This document shows, one piece after another, positions 3,193 to 15,885 of a stretch of 27,306 nucleotides of DNA (position 1 is its first letter; the number at the start of each line of letters is the position of its first letter). Position numbers and translations under genes: made by a program. Location of the stretch: positions 1 through 27,306 of the forward strand of contig JAGWLE010000001.1 of NCBI GenBank assembly GCA_028864955.1, written 5' to 3'. The notes beneath the pieces were generated by a model. The model worked only from the letters and a program-made list of their open reading frames with translations. It was not told the origin of the DNA and did no database searches. Origin of the DNA: Patescibacteria group bacterium. Lineage in GTDB: Bacteria > Patescibacteriota > Minisyncoccia > Phycocordibacterales > PALSA-1337.

Positions 3193-5136
3193 TTATTTTG
3201 TCACTGTTTCCTGCCCTTGGGCATACTGCGGATCCGTACTGAATCGCGTGGTCAAAGGCGCTTGGGTGCTCTGGAGGGTCGTATTCGTAAAGGTGTCTGT
3301 GCCGCTGAGCGTCGCTTGATTGACTAGTGTCGGGATCGAACCTGCTTGAGTGACCGAGGGCGTATACGATATCTGGAAAGCGACCTCGCGCCGGCGCATT
3401 GAATCGAGCGTATACGTGCCGACATTGCCCACCTGCCAAGTAACTGTGCCGGTATTCGGGTCATAATTGACCTGTTCATTCGGCGGACTGACCTGTCCCA
3501 GCCACTTCACATATGTCGGCAAAGTTGCCGTCATGACGCCGTTAGTCACCGGATTGGCGGTATTGTCGACATCCCAGATAACCGTGTACGTTGTCGGCTG
3601 TTCGACTTTTGGCGGCACGAGACCGGTGTTTGCAAACGGACCGATGCTCCTGACGACGCGGCCGGATAGCACGAGGTTGCTGGCGATCTTGGTCGTACGG
3701 GTTACGGCGTCCGTCACGCTTTGCGGCACGTTGGCCTCCTGCGCGCGATTGCCGCTGACATTCACGTTGAAGACCAGCGTCGGATTGACCAGAGGCTGCG
3801 AAGCCGTGCCGAGATCCCTGGGCGTGATTGAAAATGTCAGGTGCCCGCTCGCGCCGGCGGCCGCGGTGCCAAGTTCCGGATTTGTTTGCGTGTTCCACGT
3901 AATGGTATTCGCGCCGGAATCAAAAAATCCCTGGTCCGGTTGGACAGTCGTCTTGTCGTAGGCCGTGCCGGAAAGATTGGCAGTGATGACCATATTGGAT
4001 ACGGCCACCGACAGATTATTGAACCAGTCAATCTCCACCTTCTCGCTGTTATCAAACGAACCGACATGGTCGCCGCTGCCGGTATCATTATCGATATTGA
4101 CGTTCAAGGAAACAAAAGGCTTCTGGATCGTCATATCCTGTTCGACATTCATGTATTCGGAACCGATAGTCGAAGGACTGCCGGGATTCTGCGTGCCGAC
4201 ACTGAAATGGAAGACGCGCAGGTCGGTATCTTCACCGGTCAAACGGCCATGTAGGACGATCTTGCGTTCTCCGCCAGGCGGAATATCGCCGATATTCCAG
4301 GTCGACGTGTCAGTGTATGTCGGCAAACTCGATGACAGCAGAGTGTAACCGAACGGATAGGTTCCTTTGACGAGGATATTGTGAAGCGTCTGGGCGGAAT
4401 TCGATTTGAGATCGACTGTCAGATCAAATTCCTGTCCGGACGTGATCTGATTATACGAAGATACTGTCACATTAAGCGGCGACGAGTTAATAAGCACGTC
4501 GTATGATTGCGTCTTTGTAAACACCGCCGATGACCCTTTGACGCTGTATGTCAACGTAACATTTATCTCCTTTTGCAGATTTTCCTCGCCGAATATGATG
4601 GCACTAACCGTCTGGTGGACACTGCCGCCGGCCGGGATCGTGCCGAGCACTTTGTCGATGTTTTGAAGGGGCGTGCCGGAATTGCTGGGATCGGCGCTAC
4701 CCTGCGGGAAAGCGATTGCCATGTCGGTCAGTTCAAGATCGACGTTATTTTTGTTCTGAACGGTGATATTGAACGTCTCCGGCACGCCGGCTGGAATAGA
4801 TACTGGCCCGCTGATCTGGATATCGATATTGTTAGCGGAGATAAGGTTGCCGCCGTTGAAGAATATGTACGCGCCAACGCCGACCGCCAAAATGCAGAAG
4901 ATGGCGGACATGATGAGAAATTTGGCGGCAAATGACATGGGGCGTCGGTCTTCGTACGCTTGGTTGAGCTCCTTGGGACGAACATCGTCCTCGGCCGGAT
5001 GCTCCCAGTCAGACTTGAGACTGGTCTCTTCGTTGCTATAACGAAGCTTCCGGCGTGATCGGATATCCGGAGCGTTTCGGGAATAGAGCGATGTATTGAG
5101 CTCCTCGATGCGGCTTTTGTCCTCTTCAGATGGCAC
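3193..5136 (-). CDS. Single-pass membrane protein with tandem extracellular Ig-like (DUF11/CARDB-like) beta-sandwich domains
   Basis: 647 aa: charged N-terminal tail, one TM helix (FLIMSAIFCILAVGVGAYIFF), then Thr/Ser/Asn-rich beta repeats such as TTYTVIWDVDNTAN. GTG start 7 nt after TGGTATACT. Confidence 0.75.
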   Translation of the reverse strand: MPSEEDKSRIEELNTSLYSRNAPDIRSRRKLRYSNEETSLKSDWEHPAEDDVRPKELNQAYEDRRPMSFAAKFLIMSAIFCILAVGVGAYIFFNGGNLISANNIDIQISGPVSIPAGVPETFNITVQNKNNVDLELTDMAIAFPQGSADPSNSGTPLQNIDKVLGTIPAGGSVHQTVSAIIFGEENLQKEINVTLTYSVKGSSAVFTKTQSYDVLINSSPLNVTVSSYNQITSGQEFDLTVDLKSNSAQTLHNILVKGTYPFGYTLLSSSLPTYTDTSTWNIGDIPPGGERKIVLHGRLTGEDTDLRVFHFSVGTQNPGSPSTIGSEYMNVEQDMTIQKPFVSLNVNIDNDTGSGDHVGSFDNSEKVEIDWFNNLSVAVSNMVITANLSGTAYDKTTVQPDQGFFDSGANTITWNTQTNPELGTAAAGASGHLTFSITPRDLGTASQPLVNPTLVFNVNVSGNRAQEANVPQSVTDAVTRTTKIASNLVLSGRVVRSIGPFANTGLVPPKVEQPTTYTVIWDVDNTANPVTNGVMTATLPTYVKWLGQVSPPNEQVNYDPNTGTVTWQVGNVGTYTLDSMRRREVAFQISYTPSVTQAGSIPTLVNQATLSGTDTFTNTTLQSTQAPLTTRFSTDPQYAQGQETVTK

Positions 5137-5160: not shown

Positions 5161-5829
5161 TCATAGCTGTGATTCGCGCAAGGCCTTATTTATATGCACA
5201 TTCATACGCATTCTCTCTGGCGCCAACTCGGCCAAAAAACCCGGCGTAAGCGGCTCCGTCCGGAAGCGCGCCTCGATCAGCCTGTCATTGCCAATGTAAC
5301 CGAGAGCATCAAGGATGCGCAGAACGATGACGGATTCCAGCGCTTTGAATTGATCAGCCGTAAGCGCGCGTTCTCTCTGGAGAAAATCGCGCGCCGATTC
5401 GATGGCCATGAATAGCCGCGGCTGTGATTCCTCGCCGTGAAGCAGCCGCCGCAAGAGCACGGCGATTCGCCCGATCAATTCCTGTGCCATTCTACTTTCA
5501 ATTCTATATTCGCCATTCTGTATTCTTTCATTTTTGTCTTCTTCTATTACTTTATTCTCGACTCCTCTATTCTCGACTGTTCCTATACCCTCGCTCTTGC
5601 TATCCTCCGCATGTGTCAGCCGCCAAAATTCTTTTCCGCGTACAAAGGAAAACACGCCGAAGGCGTACTCCTGCGTATGATAACGCAGCTTTGATTTTTC
5701 GAGGCGTATGCCCTGCGCCGTGGCGAGCACCAGACCAAAATCGCGCGTGAATATCGAAAGCATCTTGCCCGCTTCGCCGTATGGATGCGAATCGATGACG
5801 AATCCGGGAGTTGTGTGGATATGATGCAT
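5161..5829 (-). CDS. recO: DNA repair protein RecO (OB-fold plus helical part, no Cys4 zinc finger) with a low-complexity insertion
   Basis: N-terminal T.GFVI...YGEAGK.LSIFTRDFGLVLA.AQGIR..KSKLR matches the RecO OB-fold. Lies near glyQS, a common linkage. Confidence 0.85.
   Translation of the reverse strand: MHHIHTTPGFVIDSHPYGEAGKMLSIFTRDFGLVLATAQGIRLEKSKLRYHTQEYAFGVFSFVRGKEFWRLTHAEDSKSEGIGTVENRGVENKVIEEDKNERIQNGEYRIESRMAQELIGRIAVLLRRLLHGEESQPRLFMAIESARDFLQRERALTADQFKALESVIVLRILDALGYIGNDRLIEARFRTEPLTPGFLAELAPERMRMNVHINKALRESQL
5490..5603 (-). repeat. Decayed AGAATAN-type heptamer insertion in recO
   Basis: ATTC recurs at 7-nt spacing (5501, 5508, 5515, 5522). Direct repeat TATTCTCGACT at 5553-5563 and 5568-5578. 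Encodes SKSEGIGTVENRGVENKVIEEDKNERIQNGEYRIES. Confidence 0.6.
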
Positions 5830-5883: not shown

Positions 5884-8800
5884 TTAGGCTGCGAGCCCTA
5901 GCGTCGCCCCCTCTTCGATAGACGTCAGATTCGTCGCCTTTTTTATTTCTGCCTCAAATTTATTCACAAGTGACTTCAATTCGGCCGGAACGACAAGCAC
6001 GGCTATGTCACTAACCTTGAGGCCTTTCTCCTTGCGCAGATCCTGAATCTTGCGCAAAAGCTCGCGAAGATCACCTTCTTCCTTGAGAGCCGCTGAAATG
6101 TCCGTATCAAGCTTGTCTTCGGTTGCGCCAAATACGATCTCCTTGACATTAAGCTCATCTTTGATGATTTCGCCAAGACTGATCACGGCTGAAGTGGTTG
6201 AGAATGAAGCGAGCGGCTGGCGCACATTGATCTTGGCCGCATTGCGCGCTTCGAGTCCTTTGGAGGAAATCTGCCGCGCGATTTCCATTTCTTTGAGAAG
6301 TTTTTCGTCGACGGCACCGGCTGCCGGCCACTCTGTCAGGTGCACAGACTCCAGCTCTCCGCCGACTTCCTTGTAGGCGTATTCGGAAAAGAACGGCGTA
6401 AATGGCGCCATGACTTTGGCGAGAGTAAGGAGAATCCAACGTGTTGTATTCAGAGCCGACTGCTTGTCCGCTTCATCATCTCCCTTGAATCGGTCGCGCG
6501 AACGGCGCAGATACCACTGCGATAGGTCTGCCACAAAATCGCGAATGGCGCGCGTCGGCTCGAGGAAAACGTAGGCATCCATGCCTTTCGTGACGGCTTC
6601 GATCAGCTGATTCATTCGCGAAACGATCCAGCGATCAAGCACATTCTGCGATTCTGGTTGCACCGTGTCACTTGTGACTTTTGACTTCTGACTTTTGACT
6701 TTTGACTTCTGACTTGGCTCTTGTGACTTGTGACTTTCAACCTTCGGCCTATGTTCATAAATCTTGTAGAAACTTGTCACATTCAATGCGAGATTGAAGA
6801 CTTTCTTGACGACTTCATCAACGGTCTTCTCGTCAAAATTCTTTGATTCTCCCGGCTGATTGACACTGTACATCCAGAAGCGCAGCGCATCAGCACCATA
6901 CTTGTCCATCATCTCGAATGGATTGACGACGTTGCCCAACGACTTGGACATCTTTTTGCCATCGGCGTCGAGGATGTGGCCGAGGCAGATGACATTCTTG
7001 TACGCCTTGCCCATACCCATGAGCGTGCCGACCGCGTGCAAGGTGTAAAACCAGCCGCGTGTCTGGTCGATGGCTTCAGAGATAAAGTCCGCCGGATATG
7101 CCAGTTTCTGCTCATGACCGAAGATCTTGCTGAGCAATCCGTGTGACTCTTGATTTTCGACTTTCGACTCAAATGGATAGTGATCCTGCGCAAATGGCAT
7201 GGCGCCGCTGTCGAACCAGACATCCATGACTTCCTTGACCCGCTTCATGTCGCCGCCGCAGCTACAGGCGAGCTTCGTGTCATCGATATACGGCCGATGG
7301 AGATCGAGCTCATATTCCGGGTTATGCGGCACGATCCTGAAGTCGACCTTCTTGTAATGGCCTTTCTGAATATAGTTGTTGAGTTCATAGGCGATGGTTT
7401 GCTCCCTATCCCAGCCGTGCGCGGCTGCGATAAGCATCATCGTCGGACTGCCGTGTGAAACGATCAGGATCTTCTTGCCAGAATACTTTGATTCGATGTC
7501 ATAGAGGAAATCACCCATGCGCTTCTTCACCTCGGCGTATGTTTCAACGCCGACCGGCGATTTGCTAAATCGGTAGATGTCCATGGGAAATTCCTTCATG
7601 AATCCCTCGAGAGGCTTGCCGTTCCATTTGCCGAGAGCCATCTCCTGCAGACGATCGTCTGTTATAAATTGTTCATCAGCAAGCCCGAACATTTTCTGTA
7701 CGATACGAGCCGATTCCTGCGTGCGCATAAACGGCGAAGCGAAGATGAGATCTATGCCTTCACCTTTGAGCGGCGCCAGATGTTCGGCGATCTTTTGTTT
7801 GCCGACTTCAGTCAGATGATTCGAGACGTTTGCATCGGAATTGAGCAGGCCTTTCGCATTGAATTCGGCCTCACCGTGTCGCATGATCCAGTACTCATTC
7901 TTGGGCTTGCGCGCGATCTCTTCGACGGAACCGACAACACGGCGCACGCCGCACTTTTCGCACAACCACACAGGCAACGGCGTACCCCAATAGCGCTCTC
8001 GTGAAATGGCCCAATCCTTGACCTCGCGCAACCACTCGCCAAAGCGGCCTTCTTTGATATGTTCAGGCTCCCAGTGGATGCCTTCGTTTTCCCTGACCAG
8101 CTTGTCGCGAAGTTTGGACATGGCGATGTACCAGCTGTCGCGAGCGAAATAGATGAGCGGCGTATGACAGCGCCAACAGAACGGATACGTATGCTCATAT
8201 TTTTCCTTGTAGAACAGGAGTCCACGATACGCCAGATCTTTGATGATCTCCACCGCCACCGCCTCGTCATCCTTCACGAACTTCCCCGCCAAGAATCCAG
8301 CTTCTTTCTTGAATGTGCCGTCGTCGTTCACCAGGTGATACTTTGGCAAGCCGACGCGCGTGCCGAGCTCGAAGTCGTCCTGACCATACATCGGCGCCAT
8401 ATGCACGATGCCCGTGCCATCTTCTGTGGTCACGAAATCACCGGCATAGACTTTGAATGCATTCGTGAGTTTTTCTTTTTCTGCACCACTCACATTGTCT
8501 TTCAAGAATGGGTAGAGAGGCTCGTATTCGGTACCAATCAGGTCTTTGCCCTTGAATGTTTCAACAATTGATGGATTCTTGAAATGACCTCTAACAGATT
8601 CAAATCTGTCTTTAGCAAGAATATAGAATTGAGACATCGTCTCAGAAACATTAGGTGTCAATCCATTTAACTCCTCCTTTACAGGCTCACCAATAAACAA
8701 ATCTTTAATTTTGACATACTCAATCTTTTCATTGACGGCCAAACCGACATTTCCAGGCAATGTCCACGGCGTCGTCGTCCACGCAAGGAGATACGTGTCG

Positions 8801-9492
8801 CCAGGTTTTTCACTTTCGACTTTTGACTTTTGGCTTTTGACTTTTAACTTCACATACACCGACAAATCCTTGACCGTCTCATACCCCTGTGCCAATTCAT
8901 GCGACGACAACGCCGTACCGCAGCGCGGGCACCAGGGCACGACTTTATAGTCCTTATAGAGGAGCTTCTCGTGATCGACGTGCTTGACGATGTTCCAGAC
9001 TGATTCGATGAAGTTTGGCTTATATGTGACATAGGCATTCTTCAAATCAACCCAAAATGCCATACGTTCGGTGAGTTCTTCCCATTCGCGTACATACGTC
9101 CAAACAATCTCTTTGCACTTGGAATTAAACTCCTCGATACCGTATGCGTCAATTTCTTTTTTTGACCTAATGCCAAGCTCCTTCTCTGCCTGGAGTTCGA
9201 CGGGTAATCCGTGAGTATCCCAGCCTCCGCGACGACGTACGCGATAGCCGCGCATGGTCTTATAGCGCGGAATAGCATCCTTGAAGGCGCGCGATTCAAA
9301 ATGACCGATATGCGGCCGCCCATTAGCGCCTGGCGGTCCCTCGTAAAAAACAAACTCGCCCTTTGGCGCGGGCTTATTCAGGGACTTTTCAAAAATGCCC
9401 TGCTCTTTCCAAAATGCAAGAATAGACTCCTCACGTTCTGCATGAGGAGATTTTGGATGTTCTGTCTTTTTCGAGTCAGCCTGATCTGCCAT
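5884..9492 (-). CDS. ileS: Isoleucine--tRNA ligase, type 2 (IleRS2), with inserted histidine phosphatase domain
   Basis: GPPGANGRPHIGH, GWDTHGLPVE, WTTTPWTLPGN, GTGIVHMAP, DWAISRERYWGTP, VMDVWFDSG, EAIDQTRGWFY and KMSKS. C-terminal EG.LRELLRKIQDLRKEKGL.VSD is characteristic of type 2. Confidence 0.97.
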   Translation of the reverse strand: MADQADSKKTEHPKSPHAEREESILAFWKEQGIFEKSLNKPAPKGEFVFYEGPPGANGRPHIGHFESRAFKDAIPRYKTMRGYRVRRRGGWDTHGLPVELQAEKELGIRSKKEIDAYGIEEFNSKCKEIVWTYVREWEELTERMAFWVDLKNAYVTYKPNFIESVWNIVKHVDHEKLLYKDYKVVPWCPRCGTALSSHELAQGYETVKDLSVYVKLKVKSQKSKVESEKPGDTYLLAWTTTPWTLPGNVGLAVNEKIEYVKIKDLFIGEPVKEELNGLTPNVSETMSQFYILAKDRFESVRGHFKNPSIVETFKGKDLIGTEYEPLYPFLKDNVSGAEKEKLTNAFKVYAGDFVTTEDGTGIVHMAPMYGQDDFELGTRVGLPKYHLVNDDGTFKKEAGFLAGKFVKDDEAVAVEIIKDLAYRGLLFYKEKYEHTYPFCWRCHTPLIYFARDSWYIAMSKLRDKLVRENEGIHWEPEHIKEGRFGEWLREVKDWAISRERYWGTPLPVWLCEKCGVRRVVGSVEEIARKPKNEYWIMRHGEAEFNAKGLLNSDANVSNHLTEVGKQKIAEHLAPLKGEGIDLIFASPFMRTQESARIVQKMFGLADEQFITDDRLQEMALGKWNGKPLEGFMKEFPMDIYRFSKSPVGVETYAEVKKRMGDFLYDIESKYSGKKILIVSHGSPTMMLIAAAHGWDREQTIAYELNNYIQKGHYKKVDFRIVPHNPEYELDLHRPYIDDTKLACSCGGDMKRVKEVMDVWFDSGAMPFAQDHYPFESKVENQESHGLLSKIFGHEQKLAYPADFISEAIDQTRGWFYTLHAVGTLMGMGKAYKNVICLGHILDADGKKMSKSLGNVVNPFEMMDKYGADALRFWMYSVNQPGESKNFDEKTVDEVVKKVFNLALNVTSFYKIYEHRPKVESHKSQEPSQKSKVKSQKSKVTSDTVQPESQNVLDRWIVSRMNQLIEAVTKGMDAYVFLEPTRAIRDFVADLSQWYLRRSRDRFKGDDEADKQSALNTTRWILLTLAKVMAPFTPFFSEYAYKEVGGELESVHLTEWPAAGAVDEKLLKEMEIARQISSKGLEARNAAKINVRQPLASFSTTSAVISLGEIIKDELNVKEIVFGATEDKLDTDISAALKEEGDLRELLRKIQDLRKEKGLKVSDIAVLVVPAELKSLVNKFEAEIKKATNLTSIEEGATLGLAA
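6668..6737. repeat. In-frame heptamer tandem array (TGACTTt/c/g x10 on plus strand) inside ileS
   Basis: tcacttg tgacttt tgacttc tgacttt tgacttt tgacttc tgacttg gctcttg tgacttg tgacttt; encodes KVESHKSQEPSQKSKVKSQKSKVTSD. Confidence 0.95.
7144..7171. repeat. Short in-frame heptamer array (4 units) inside ileS
   Basis: tgactct tgatttt cgacttt cgactca; encodes ESKVENQESH. Confidence 0.7.
7340..7900 (-). other. Histidine phosphatase (phosphoglycerate-mutase-like) domain inserted in IleRS (approximate boundaries)
   Basis: YWIMRHGEAEFN (RHG), ASPFMRTQESA, DDRLQEMALGKWNG, ETYAEVKKR and ILIVSHGS. Lies between IleRS segments CEKC..GSVEEI and DLHRPYID..CSCGG. Confidence 0.92.
8810..8851. repeat. In-frame heptamer tandem array (6 units, 42 nt) inside ileS
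   Basis: tcacttt cgacttt tgacttt tggcttt tgacttt taacttc; encodes KLKVKSQKSKVESE. Confidence 0.92.
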
Positions 9493-9532: not shown

Positions 9533-11320
9533 TTACATCCTCTTTGGCACCGTGATCCCGAGCAACCATAGGCCGTCTGTCATGACATTCGTGAATGCGC
9601 GCGTCAGAGCGACGCGATATGGCGAGAGTGGATCATGTTCGTCGATGATAGTCTGCGACGCATAGAAGCTGTTGAACTCGCCGGCAAGCGACACCAGATA
9701 ATTGGCCACCAGCTGCGGCGCATATTCCGCCTGAGCGCGCTCGACGACGTCGGCAAATCGCGAAAGCAATTTTTCCAGAGAGCCAACCTTGTCCGGCAGC
9801 TTGATTTCTGAAACACCTGATTCGTCTCCGACAAGATCCAACATGTCACCTGCCACTTTTGACGTGTGACTTTCGCCTTGTGACTTGTTACTTGTAACGT
9901 GTGCCTTCTCTAAAACTGAATTTGCGCGCACCACGGAGTATTGCAGATATGGCCCCGAATCGCCTTCGAAGGAGATCGACGCTGCCGAATCAAAGATGAT
10001 ATCACTGCCGATCGACGTGCGCAGGATCGAGTACTTGATGGCGCCGATAGCGATCGCGTCCGAAATCTCCGTCGCCTCCTCCGGTTCGAATTTCCGATCG
10101 GCTATTTTCTGTTTGACCATCTCCTTGATGTCTGAAATGAGCGACTCGGCCGTGACAACATTGCCCGTTCGGCTCGACATTTTGCCTGAAGCAAATCGCA
10201 TCATGCCATGGCCGATGTGCATGGTCTTTGCGCCGACATTTTGATCGATGAGCGATAGGGCTTTGACGAGAACTCTGAAATAGTCGTTCTGTTCGCTGGC
10301 CGTAACGATGATCGAACGTTCAAGATCAGGGTGGCTCTGGAACTTGCTCGTATTCAGGCCGATTTCCTTGGCCTCATAGGTCGGCAGTCCCAAAGCGTTC
10401 ACGAACACGCGCGTATGCAAGCCGTAGTCTTCGCCTCTAAAGACGACCGCGCCCTCGCTCATTTGGAAGACATTCTTCGTCAGGAATTCCTTGACGATCG
10501 ACAGACCGACCGGCGCCATGTCGCTCTCGAACAGAGTTTCGTCGAATTTCGTGCCGAGTCGGGCGTAGAGCATGTCGAAATGATCGAGGCTCCATTTCCT
10601 GCCCTTCTCATACAGCGCGTTTACATCCTTGCTCGATCGCTCATACAGCAGGCGATTCAAGACTTCGATGTCATCCTTGGCGGCAGGATCTTCTTCATAG
10701 GCTTTCGTGCCTTCGACGTACATTTTGCCCAGAAAATCTGTCCTCTCGGCGATCGGCGCGGCATCGCGCGGCATTTCGTCCCGGTGTTTTTGGATCGCCC
10801 AGACCGCTTTGGCGATATGCAAACCGATATCCGAGGTATAGCACATGCGGATCGTCTCGGCCCCGGAATATTCGATCAGCCGTGAGAGGGACTCTCCTAT
10901 GGCATTCGACATCAGATGTCCGATGTGGAAGACCTTGAACGTGTTTGGATCGGTGTATTCGATGATGATCTTTCGAGCCAGCGAATTTCTGGCCGCCGAG
11001 CGCGAATGAAGAGCAGCAGGCGCGCGCATCCGAATGACTGTACGGGCAAAAGCCTCGTCTCTGACTGAAAAATTGATAAAACCCGGACCGGCTATGAAAA
11101 CTTTGGCAACGGCAGGCGGCATAGATCGGCCGAACTCGGCAACGATCTTCCCGGCCAATGACTGCGGCGACATGCCGAGCTTCCGGGCGCCAACCATCGC
11201 TATGTTCGTTGAAAAATCCCCGTGCGCCGGATTATCCGGATATGCCAGCCGTATGCCTTGTTCGTCGAGGCCGAGCTTTTGGGCGATCTCCTTGAGGCGT
11301 TCCAATATCTCCGCTTTCAT
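9533..11320 (-). CDS. argS: Arginine--tRNA ligase
   Basis: HGDFSTN, GPGFINF, EYTDPN..K.FHIGHL, KMSSRTG, FEGDSGPYLQYS.VRA.SVL and C-terminal GL.LLGI.VPKRM. Start moved from 11368 to the ATG at 11320, 7 nt after TGCTAGAAT. Confidence 0.97.
   Translation of the reverse strand: MKAEILERLKEIAQKLGLDEQGIRLAYPDNPAHGDFSTNIAMVGARKLGMSPQSLAGKIVAEFGRSMPPAVAKVFIAGPGFINFSVRDEAFARTVIRMRAPAALHSRSAARNSLARKIIIEYTDPNTFKVFHIGHLMSNAIGESLSRLIEYSGAETIRMCYTSDIGLHIAKAVWAIQKHRDEMPRDAAPIAERTDFLGKMYVEGTKAYEEDPAAKDDIEVLNRLLYERSSKDVNALYEKGRKWSLDHFDMLYARLGTKFDETLFESDMAPVGLSIVKEFLTKNVFQMSEGAVVFRGEDYGLHTRVFVNALGLPTYEAKEIGLNTSKFQSHPDLERSIIVTASEQNDYFRVLVKALSLIDQNVGAKTMHIGHGMMRFASGKMSSRTGNVVTAESLISDIKEMVKQKIADRKFEPEEATEISDAIAIGAIKYSILRTSIGSDIIFDSAASISFEGDSGPYLQYSVVRANSVLEKAHVTSNKSQGESHTSKVAGDMLDLVGDESGVSEIKLPDKVGSLEKLLSRFADVVERAQAEYAPQLVANYLVSLAGEFNSFYASQTIIDEHDPLSPYRVALTRAFTNVMTDGLWLLGITVPKRM
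9846..9908. repeat. In-frame degenerate heptamer array (9 units, 63 nt) inside argS
   Basis: tcacctg ccacttt tgacgtg tgacttt cgccttg tgacttg ttacttg taacgtg tgccttc; encodes EKAHVTSNKSQGESHTSKVAGD. Confidence 0.85.
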
Positions 11321-11361
11321 GCGGCCTATTCTAGCAAAATACCGCCATATAGACGATTGAT

Positions 11362-11390
11362 TTGACAAAGATATCGATTGGATGTATAAA
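11362..11390 (+). promoter_or_regulatory. Sigma70-type promoter TTGACA-N17-TATAAA
   Basis: TTGACA at 11362-11367, 17-nt spacer, TATAAA at 11385-11390; divergent from argS. Confidence 0.85.
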
Positions 11391-14583: not shown

Positions 14584-15264
14584 TTATTCTATAGTAAACG
14601 TCTTCTCCGTTCCATAGTACTCCTGCCAATGGGAATTGTAATGGGCGAACATCCTTTCCAGGCGATCTTGCGGCAATTCAGACAGGCCAAGAACATTCAT
14701 GACGTTCGCGAGTTCCCGCCTGATATCATCCAGTCTGCTCTGATCCTCGGTCACGCGCTCGAATTCCGCCAGATATCCGTAACCGGCATTGCGGTCGATG
14801 CAGACGTGCATGTCCTCGGCCGCATACTCCTGCCGCTCGCGCGACCACTTGGCTTGATATGTGCAACCGGCGTCGAGCAACACCGTATCGAGTTCGTCCA
14901 GTGTTTTTTCAACGGGCACCTCGAATTCCATGCGCTTGACGCCGTTTGAACTGGTATCGTCCCCGACAGAGGCCTTCATAACCAACAGAACCTGGTTGTC
15001 GGTCTGGCGAGACCGGAGCGAAATCTTGGTGCCGCGAGTCACGATCTCTTCACACCGAGATCTCTGATCGGCCGGAATAATGTCCGCCAAGGCTCGGCGT
15101 AGAGGCTCCAGATCCGCCGGCAAATTGAAATAATGATTGAGCTGCCGGCCCGCGCTGATCATCTTGATGCCGGGAAATCGCTTGGAGAGATCGCGCTTGA
15201 GCTTCTCGGCGTTCTTCTTGGAGCCAAGCAGCGTCTTGATTTCAACCTCATACGAGTGCTTCAT
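14584..15264 (-). CDS. CYTH / triphosphate tunnel metalloenzyme family protein
   Basis: ExExK motif (YEVEIK), QLNHYF, LRSR, KRMEFE, KWSRERQEY, ID...GYGYLAEFE. Start moved to the ATG at 15264 (AAAGGA upstream) because the longer ORF overlaps the divergent folA. Confidence 0.85.
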   Translation of the reverse strand: MKHSYEVEIKTLLGSKKNAEKLKRDLSKRFPGIKMISAGRQLNHYFNLPADLEPLRRALADIIPADQRSRCEEIVTRGTKISLRSRQTDNQVLLVMKASVGDDTSSNGVKRMEFEVPVEKTLDELDTVLLDAGCTYQAKWSRERQEYAAEDMHVCIDRNAGYGYLAEFERVTEDQSRLDDIRRELANVMNVLGLSELPQDRLERMFAHYNSHWQEYYGTEKTFTIE

Positions 15265-15289
15265 GAAGGTATCCTTTACAGGTCTATGA

Positions 15290-15317
15290 AGTATAATGTT
15301 CCTACAGTCGTTTACAA
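15290..15317 (-). promoter_or_regulatory. Promoter TTGTAA-N16-TATACT for CYTH-dcd-thyA-glyA, overlapping a plus-strand TATAAT facing folA
   Basis: Minus -35 at 15312-15317 and -10 at 15290-15295; plus-strand TATAAT at 15292-15297. Confidence 0.6.
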
Positions 15318-15342
15318 GGATGACAGATAACTGATTTCTATT

Positions 15343-15885
15343 ATGAAATGTTTCATTATCGCCGCCCTGACCGCCGACGGCTATATCGCCAAGGATGAGC
15401 GCCATCCGGCGTTCTGGAGCAGTAAAGAAGACAAGAAGCGTTTTGTGGAACTGACCAAGCGAGCCGGCGTCGTGGTCATGGGCTCGACGACATTCGCTAC
15501 CCTGCCGCGACCGCTCAAGGAACGCGTCAACATCGTCTATTCGCGGACAAAGACGTTTGAGGGCGCGGAGTCGACAGAGAAGGATCCAAAGGCGCTCCTG
15601 GCGGATCTGGAAATCCGCGGTTTCAAGGAAGTCGCTATCTGCGGCGGCGCCCAGGTATACACCATGTTCATGAAGGCCGGCGTTGTCGACCAGCTGTACC
15701 TCACCGTCGAGCCGCTGGTATTCGGCAGCGGCGTGCGATTATTCAATGACGACATGCTTTACCAACTCAAACTCATGAATTCGAGCGTCACCGAGAATGG
15801 CTCGGTCATGCTCGAATACGCGGTGCATCACGGACCGCAAAAAACCGAGTCAAGCGGCGTGCTCGTCGAGGAGAGAACTATATAG
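15343..15885 (+). CDS. folA: Dihydrofolate reductase
   Basis: IAALTADGYIA, W...ED...F, VVMGSTTF..LPRPL..RVNIVYSR, ICGGAQVY..F and LYLTV. Confidence 0.93.
   Translation: MKCFIIAALTADGYIAKDERHPAFWSSKEDKKRFVELTKRAGVVVMGSTTFATLPRPLKERVNIVYSRTKTFEGAESTEKDPKALLADLEIRGFKEVAICGGAQVYTMFMKAGVVDQLYLTVEPLVFGSGVRLFNDDMLYQLKLMNSSVTENGSVMLEYAVHHGPQKTESSGVLVEERTI

Follow-up and report, generated by a model that had tools for sequence, protein, structure and literature searches.

What is a histidine phosphatase doing inside an isoleucyl-tRNA synthetase? The question is raised by the window considered here, a stretch of 27,306 nucleotides from a Patescibacteria group bacterium (assembly GCA_028864955.1, contig JAGWLE010000001.1, positions 1 to 27,306), in which the gene ileS (5884..9492, minus strand) encodes a type-2 isoleucyl-tRNA synthetase (IleRS) of 1202 residues. 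An earlier note made from the sequence had placed a histidine phosphatase inside the catalytic body of this enzyme. The profile search bears this out, since His_Phos_1 (PF00300) is recognised with an E-value of 4.6e-32 between the two halves of the catalytic domain. The inserted domain is complete, belongs to the short-form histidine phosphatases of the PhoE/PspA/CobC type and sits within the hairpin of the CP3 zinc knuckle.

The inserted segment, comprising the phosphatase and two linker strands, extends over residues 527-727 (7312..7914; this and all other features of the gene lie on the minus strand) and corresponds to a gap in the alignment with the IleRS of T. thermophilus (1ILE). Residues 13-528 of the query are equivalent to residues 8-478 of the reference chain, and residues 728-1075 to residues 487-808. 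About 200 residues therefore replace a reference loop of about 9 residues, in agreement with the expectation that a standard type-2 IleRS has only a short loop at this point. The size of the insert had been put at about 185 residues, which is too low, and the interval first given for it, 7340-7900, covers the core of the domain. In the structural model the segment has values of 92-97 in the predicted local distance difference test (pLDDT). The motifs GSVEEI (residues 521-526) and DLHRPYID (730-737) flank the insert. Further out stand the two halves of the zinc knuckle, CEKC (511-514; 7951..7962) and CSC (743-745; 7258..7266), which align to the CxxC and CxC of the T. thermophilus enzyme. The host subdomain had been named CP2 and is CP3 in the nomenclature of PMC7191050 and PMC7955072. 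CP3 is the module following the CP2-CP3 linker in IleRS structures and carries the zinc motif in T. thermophilus (PMC7191050); a catalogue of synthetase insertion modules describes it as a cysteine-rich zinc finger, with no function stated (PMC10810186). The linker itself, DWAISRERYWG (493-503; 7984..8016), is situated just upstream of the insertion and matches the yeast IleRS linker ARDWNVSRNRYWG, which contributes to the reveromycin A pocket at the site of tRNA binding (PMC7955072).

The His_Phos_1 core spans residues 535-706 (7375..7890) and scores 111.7 bits against a cut-off of 21.7 over profile positions 2-173 of 194. The same interval was recovered with 115.7 bits in a search of the own genome for members of the family (C23:7375-7890). 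All the motifs quoted in the earlier note, those of the knuckle and flanks as well as those of the phosphatase, are present. RHG (538-540; 7873..7881), with H539 as the presumed nucleophile, is conserved to 100, 99 and 100% in 113 full-length orthologues. R and H of this motif are kept in every nested copy examined, and G540 is replaced by A in several. SPFMRT (586-591; 7720..7737) provides R590 as the second phosphate-binding Arg and, like S586, this residue is 100% conserved. The same holds for E617, the presumed proton donor, in LQE (615-617; 7642..7650) and for H680, the second catalytic His, in SHG (679-681; 7450..7458). Only the His of SHG is conserved, as G681 is variable and the commonest residue there is E (32% of the orthologues). 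A further motif, PHN (722-724; 7321..7329), in the C-terminal linker is 97-98% conserved in the orthologues; it is specific to this clade and missing from the other nested clades.

Taken over the 113 orthologues, R538, H539, G540, N545, R590, E617, E650, R658 and H680 are 99-100% conserved, which supports the proposal that the phosphatase is intact and suggests that it is selected for catalysis. No relaxation of selection was seen on RHG or on the second His, both near-invariant in this set. Among the nested copies examined in isoleucyl-, valyl- (ValRS) and alanyl-tRNA synthetases (AlaRS), including two tandem copies in family f20, the catalytic residues are kept in all but two, namely two ValRS copies of family f102 in which the Glu is replaced by D and the second His by S. 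To judge from the alignment columns, evolution is somewhat faster in the insert than in the catalytic core, with a column entropy of 1.81 bits against about 1.1-1.2 bits, near the value of the C-terminal domain, and a median identity to the window protein of 44% against 51%. The CP3 zinc cysteines are kept in about 71% (CEKC) and about 70% (CSC) of the insert-bearing orthologues and lost in about 29%; zinc binding is therefore not required for hosting the domain.

The fusion is also well attested outside this assembly. A search with the insert region retrieved 456 proteins, and synthetase and His_Phos_1 domains occur together in 120 of 120 among the matches listed, which were drawn from many independent assemblies labelled Parcubacteria, Paceibacteria or Patescibacteria. 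Both junctions are covered by Logan contigs from mine drainage and soil metagenomes, belonging to two studies and to four runs of which two may be one data set, and one contig of 1184 bases matches positions 6926-8109 without mismatch. An assembly chimera, which had been named as the artefact to be checked, was therefore rejected. At a resolution of 1 kb the base composition of the insert is not distinguishable from that of its flanks. That the domain is an inactive structural spacer or a product of chimeric assembly is thus scarcely credible, given catalytic residues that are invariant across deep divergence, hundreds of independent assemblies with the fusion and contigs of several runs that cross both junctions.

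Apart from the insert, the host is presumably a normal, working type-2 IleRS. Its body scores 879.7 bits against the cut-off of 621.4 for TIGR00392 (NCBIfam ileS), and Pfam assigns tRNA-synt_1, Anticodon_1 and DUF5915 to the protein in addition to His_Phos_1. The HIGH signature (61-64; 9301..9312) is intact, the KMSKS signature is found at residues 847-851 (6940..6954), and the editing-domain chain 1WK8 aligns with residues 203-437, in which the editing motifs W236-T242 and G357-H362 are invariant or nearly so among the orthologues. Assignment to type 2 follows from the closest solved structures, 1ILE (E 2e-225) and 8C8V (E 9e-221), as the type-1 enzymes 8C9E and 1FFY reach only about 1e-86 to 1e-88. 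The AlphaFold2 model of the full protein has a mean pLDDT of 87.8 and a predicted template modelling score (pTM) of 0.80, and Foldseek places it closest to IleRS of the 1ILE and 8C8V types, with template modelling (TM) scores of 0.74-0.85 normalised to the target. The protein falls outside the NCBIfam exceptions MupA/MupB (730-734 bits against a cut-off of 1900) and NF040702, ileS_w_GNAT (291.6 bits against 1999), and Pfam recognises no GNAT domain in it. In the own genome (643 kb in 97 contigs, 87% complete) this gene is the only IleRS found. Since it is the sole IleRS found here and in the relatives, aminoacylation is probably retained despite the insert.

Arrays of 7-base units occur in frame in ileS, at 6666-6737, 7155-7169 and 8807-8850, and also in argS at 9855-9907. 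They encode peptides rich in K, S, Q and V, such as KVKSQKSKV, with pLDDT below 50 in the model. Two short contig 'joints', 6411->7279 and 8784->8923, have sides of about 21-23 bases, the second being beside a heptamer array, and are probably repeat artefacts.

The best solved relatives of the insert are PspA (4IJ5, E 1.6e-13), PhoE (1H2E, 1EBB) and CobC (6E4B, 6NRU), with E-values of up to 2e-6. These proteins have the catalytic set and the length class in common with the insert; they are free-standing, whereas the insert is nested. In terms of NCBIfam equivalogs the insert scores 81.6 bits against 162.9 for CobC, 57.1 against 350 for PspA and 34.7 against 74.5 for SixA. As it stays under every equivalog cut-off, only the general chemistry and no substrate can be transferred from PspA, PhoE or CobC. 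A fusion of a different build is NF005567, the bifunctional RNase H/acid phosphatase, which we take to be of the Rv2228c type. There a His_Phos_1 domain is likewise joined to an enzyme of nucleic acids, but end to end and not nested, and the insert reaches 78 bits, below the cut-off of 326. To our knowledge the role of the phosphatase in that protein is also unsettled.

The solved IleRS of type 2, 1ILE and 1JZQ from T. thermophilus and 8C8U-8C9D from P. megaterium, share with the window protein HIGH, KMSKS, the editing domain and the two Cys knuckles, but hold about 9 residues at the site where it has about 200. That a hydrolytic domain can be nested within the Rossmann fold is already known from the CP1 editing domain (PMC10810186, PMC7191050). 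CP1, however, acts on the 3' end of tRNA and is universal in IleRS, ValRS and leucyl-tRNA synthetase (LeuRS), whereas the insert is lineage-specific and of unrelated fold. The earlier note had supposed that similar fusions occur in the candidate phyla radiation (CPR) with no function assigned, and this agrees with the 456 matches and with the literature. Full-text literature searching yielded no paper on the fusion, and the single printed mention found is that of Kantor et al. (2013), who describe for SR1/ACD80 an IleRS with a Nudix and two phosphoglycerate mutase domains. It resembles the present protein in being a CPR IleRS interrupted by domains of the His_Phos_1 family; the window protein differs in having one phosphatase domain, no Nudix and another lineage. 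The mention is one sentence that gives no site, residue analysis or function. This kind of fusion has thus been noted in print but not characterised, and hardly anything has been published on a second enzyme lodged within the catalytic body.

The insert sequence was used as query to survey the distribution of the domain in 400 genomes sampled from the phylum. About 60 of them encode a related domain inside a long open reading frame, where some hits were classified from fetched loci and the rest were judged on frame length and kinship only. Nested-type hits are found in all 7 genomes of the same order and in 12 of the 16 sampled genomes of the same class. Of the remaining four, three (family f16) have a free gene of 191-213 residues and one is without any copy. 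With a threshold of E<=1e-8, no His_Phos_1 was found in 128 of the 401 genomes sampled, one of which is a complete genome from the same class; the family is therefore dispensable in the phylum.

Family f16 is instructive with regard to the origin of the insert. Its loci (L012-L014) carry, on one strand, argS, the phosphatase gene, one to three variable genes, an ileS without insert and recO. In the window the order is argS (9533..11368, minus strand; tRNA-synt_1d, DALR_1 and Arg_tRNA_synt_N in Pfam), ileS with the insert, and recO (5161..5829, minus strand; RecO_N). This synteny suggests that the nested domain was derived from, or exchanges with, the free gene between argS and ileS of this sister family. 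The variable genes of f16 include one for a protein of 247-255 residues with a weak alternative-oxidase-like (di-iron) match, which in two genomes shares an overlap of about 30 bases with the phosphatase gene, and others for a protein of 386 residues with a sub-threshold Fic/Doc match and for a protein of 485 residues without match. Family f81 has a nested copy and in addition a free copy immediately upstream of ileS, and the two tandem copies of f20 share one CP3 site. In genome G172 (family f53) a gene of 120 residues (L015:7585-7947) with a borderline NUDIX match (20.9 bits; cut-off 21.1) immediately follows a free phosphatase gene belonging to the window's clade, an arrangement that echoes the IleRS of Kantor et al. 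(2013).

A maximum-likelihood tree was computed for 68 domains; since about 200 columns were available and the search was a quick one, only its starred branches are usable. The window domain belongs to a clade (support 95) with 21 IleRS copies, the free genes of f16, two other free genes and one ValRS copy. The AlaRS copies form one clade (support 99), and so do the IleRS copies at a second site described below (support 97).

Related domains are not confined to the CP3 module of IleRS. At least 10 genomes have one at the equivalent CP3 position of ValRS; all nine proteins compared with family models matched valS (eight in NCBIfam, seven of these above both cut-offs and that of G116 above one only, and one in Pfam only), and the tenth, of G221, is identified by BLAST only. 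In family f56 an AlaRS of 775-800 residues (L030, L031, L057, L058) holds His_Phos_1 in the class-II catalytic domain, inserted at about position 205-215 of the profile of that domain. Family f90 has the phosphatase at a second site of IleRS, at the start of the anticodon-binding domain and not in CP3 (L025:6138-10490 in G147 and L026:1156-5400 in G314, both on the minus strand). The IleRS of G147 includes in a third loop, after the HFPF motif, a GNAT acetyltransferase as well, for which comparison with solved structures gave weak matches only (best E 0.005); NF040702 is comparable in that a loop of a CPR-type IleRS likewise houses a small enzyme. That of G314 has an in-frame match to an IS200-like (Y1_Tnp) transposase at residues 299-375, and in this genome both IleRS and ValRS carry the phosphatase domain.

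End-to-end fusions of His_Phos_1 are found as well, at the C-terminus of a D-2-hydroxyacid dehydrogenase (552-574 residues; L050-L053), which forms a separate clade, and in a DedA/VTT membrane protein of 442 residues (L054). The genome of the window itself encodes a LeuRS of 1309 residues (contig C85, L060:783-4712, minus strand) with a NUDIX domain at residues 264-363 (83.5 bits) and a serine/alpha-beta hydrolase at residues 417-533, both placed between the first half of the Rossmann fold and the editing domain. Its ValRS (L061, 745 residues) has no insert.

The interpretation that we tentatively prefer, weakly and with rather less than even confidence, is that the phosphatase has a small soluble phosphomonoester as its substrate and works independently of charging. 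It would ride in an insertion-tolerant loop of an essential and steadily expressed gene. What would retain it there, as in a neutral ratchet, is the need for its own activity and not any handling of tRNA(Ile). By the chemistry of the family, H539 would attack the phosphomonoester and become phosphorylated while Arg538, Asn545, Arg590 and His680 hold the phosphate; Glu617 would protonate the leaving group, and water would then free the phosphate. This reading is suggested by the nearest solved relatives, PspA, PhoE and CobC, which are small-molecule phosphatases, and by nested domains that are not basic and an insert that evolves faster than the core. The heptamer expansions and the Nudix, esterase, GNAT and transposase segments seen in synthetases further point to insertion tolerance, and not to one shared substrate. 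The lack of the family in about a third of the genomes sampled counts in the same direction.

The roles put forward in the earlier note, namely repair of 3'-phosphorylated tRNA ends, reversal of phosphorylation by toxins and clearance of a phosphorylated inhibitor, have mixed indirect evidence. Several observations weigh against independence from charging and favour a phosphatase coupled to charging, which would dephosphorylate something that the synthetase handles, with the synthetase body supplying substrate binding. Candidate substrates are a CCA end blocked by a 2'/3'-phosphate or pyrophosphate, nucleotide by-products that carry a phosphate, and phosphorylated compounds that mimic or poison the active site. 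All nested hosts classified in the sample are tRNA synthetases, namely AlaRS, ValRS and, with two different sites, IleRS, and repeated nesting in synthetases is the pattern that selection for a functional link predicts. The starred branches of the tree force at least three origins for the IleRS-CP3 copies and at least two for those of ValRS. Free copies adjoin ileS or argS in two lineages, the gene between argS and ileS having an operon-like position, and the nested copy of G271, a genome of another family, is sister (support 100) to the free copies beside ileS in f81. The insertion starts just past the CP2-CP3 linker that in yeast IleRS lines the tRNA binding pocket (PMC7955072), and nearly all nested copies examined, the tandem pair of f20 included, retain the catalytic residues. 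Both housekeeping roles that could be tested, considered below, are unsupported. A Nudix and two phosphatase-family domains in one IleRS (Kantor et al. 2013) would also fit such coupling, as would the toxins that are reported to pyrophosphorylate the CCA end and that can be tRNA-specific (10.1101/2021.04.30.441581, 10.1101/2024.07.05.602228). Coupling is nevertheless doubtful, though a real possibility. The nested domains are neutral to acidic, with a median isoelectric point of 6.6 in IleRS and 5.55 in ValRS, and a basic RNA-binding surface was not seen as judged by the former value, which is weak evidence only. That usually one synthetase per genome bears the domain would be odd if its task were a general repair of tRNA, and unrelated enzymes (GNAT, Nudix, esterase, transposase) also occupy synthetase loops. 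An antidote to an endogenous tRNA-pyrophosphorylating toxin was considered and rejected, as no RelA/SpoT-type synthetase domain was found in the own genome, at its 87% completeness; toxins of exogenous origin could still be the target. In its most specific form, in which the nested phosphatase would strip a blocking 2'/3'-phosphate or pyrophosphate off the CCA end of bound tRNA before charging as a CPR 'sanitising' enzyme, the idea seems unlikely. The damage might then resemble that caused by tRNA-pyrophosphorylating toxins of competitors, hosts or phages, and elsewhere the phosphatase would cooperate with the Nudix, HD, esterase or GNAT domains that sister synthetases contain.

Other substrates appear still less probable. 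The domain could be a protein phosphatase that undoes phosphorylation of the synthetase or of a translation factor by kinase toxins of the Hip or Doc type, as a built-in antidote. Some branch-1 histidine phosphatases, namely SixA, Sts-1 and PGAM5, do act on proteins, and SixA is among the weak NCBIfam matches of the insert, below its cut-off. The Fic/Doc match in f16, in a gene between the free phosphatase and ileS, is sub-threshold (19.4 bits) and restricted to one genome; no kinase-toxin partner was identified, and with small-molecule phosphatases as nearest relatives we regard this role as quite improbable. Yet more improbable is that the domain serves as the cofactor-dependent phosphoglycerate mutase (dPGM) of the cell, even though its best NCBIfam match is dPGM_arch. 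The role was rejected because the scores are far below the cut-offs (87.8 bits against 225 for dPGM_arch, 17.8 against 81.7 for pgm_1) and because five complete genomes of the same class, in which the nested copy is the only His_Phos_1, all have a separate gene of the Metalloenzyme family (406-548 residues), mutase-type and directly after enolase in one of them. Moreover, the residues following E617 read M-A-L-G, where the mutase motif is R-H-Y-G, and the own genome has two further free His_Phos_1 genes. In support of a mutase stand the name 'phosphoglycerate mutase domains' in the sentence of Kantor et al. (2013) and the gene content of the own genome, in which enolase is present and no Metalloenzyme-family mutase was found at 87% completeness. 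A substitute for soluble pyrophosphatase (PPase) is not supported either; no soluble PPase was found in the own genome, but a membrane H+-PPase is encoded there.

The finding adds a nested second enzyme to a well-studied class of enzymes, one that is conserved across a bacterial class and has been repeatedly acquired by three synthetase families. Should the domain act on tRNA ends, on by-products of charging or on poisons, it would represent a new step of quality control or defence in translation, and if it sanitises the CCA end, an editing synthetase would have gained a third catalytic site. As an independent passenger, it would be a clear example of multi-enzyme proteins that arise, under extreme genome reduction, through insertion of domains into tolerant loops in essential genes.

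Among the other genes of the window, the minus strand encodes a protein of 647 residues without Pfam match downstream of recO (3193-5136) and a CYTH-domain protein of 273 residues (14584-15405) adjoining genes for dCTP deaminase, thyA and glyA.

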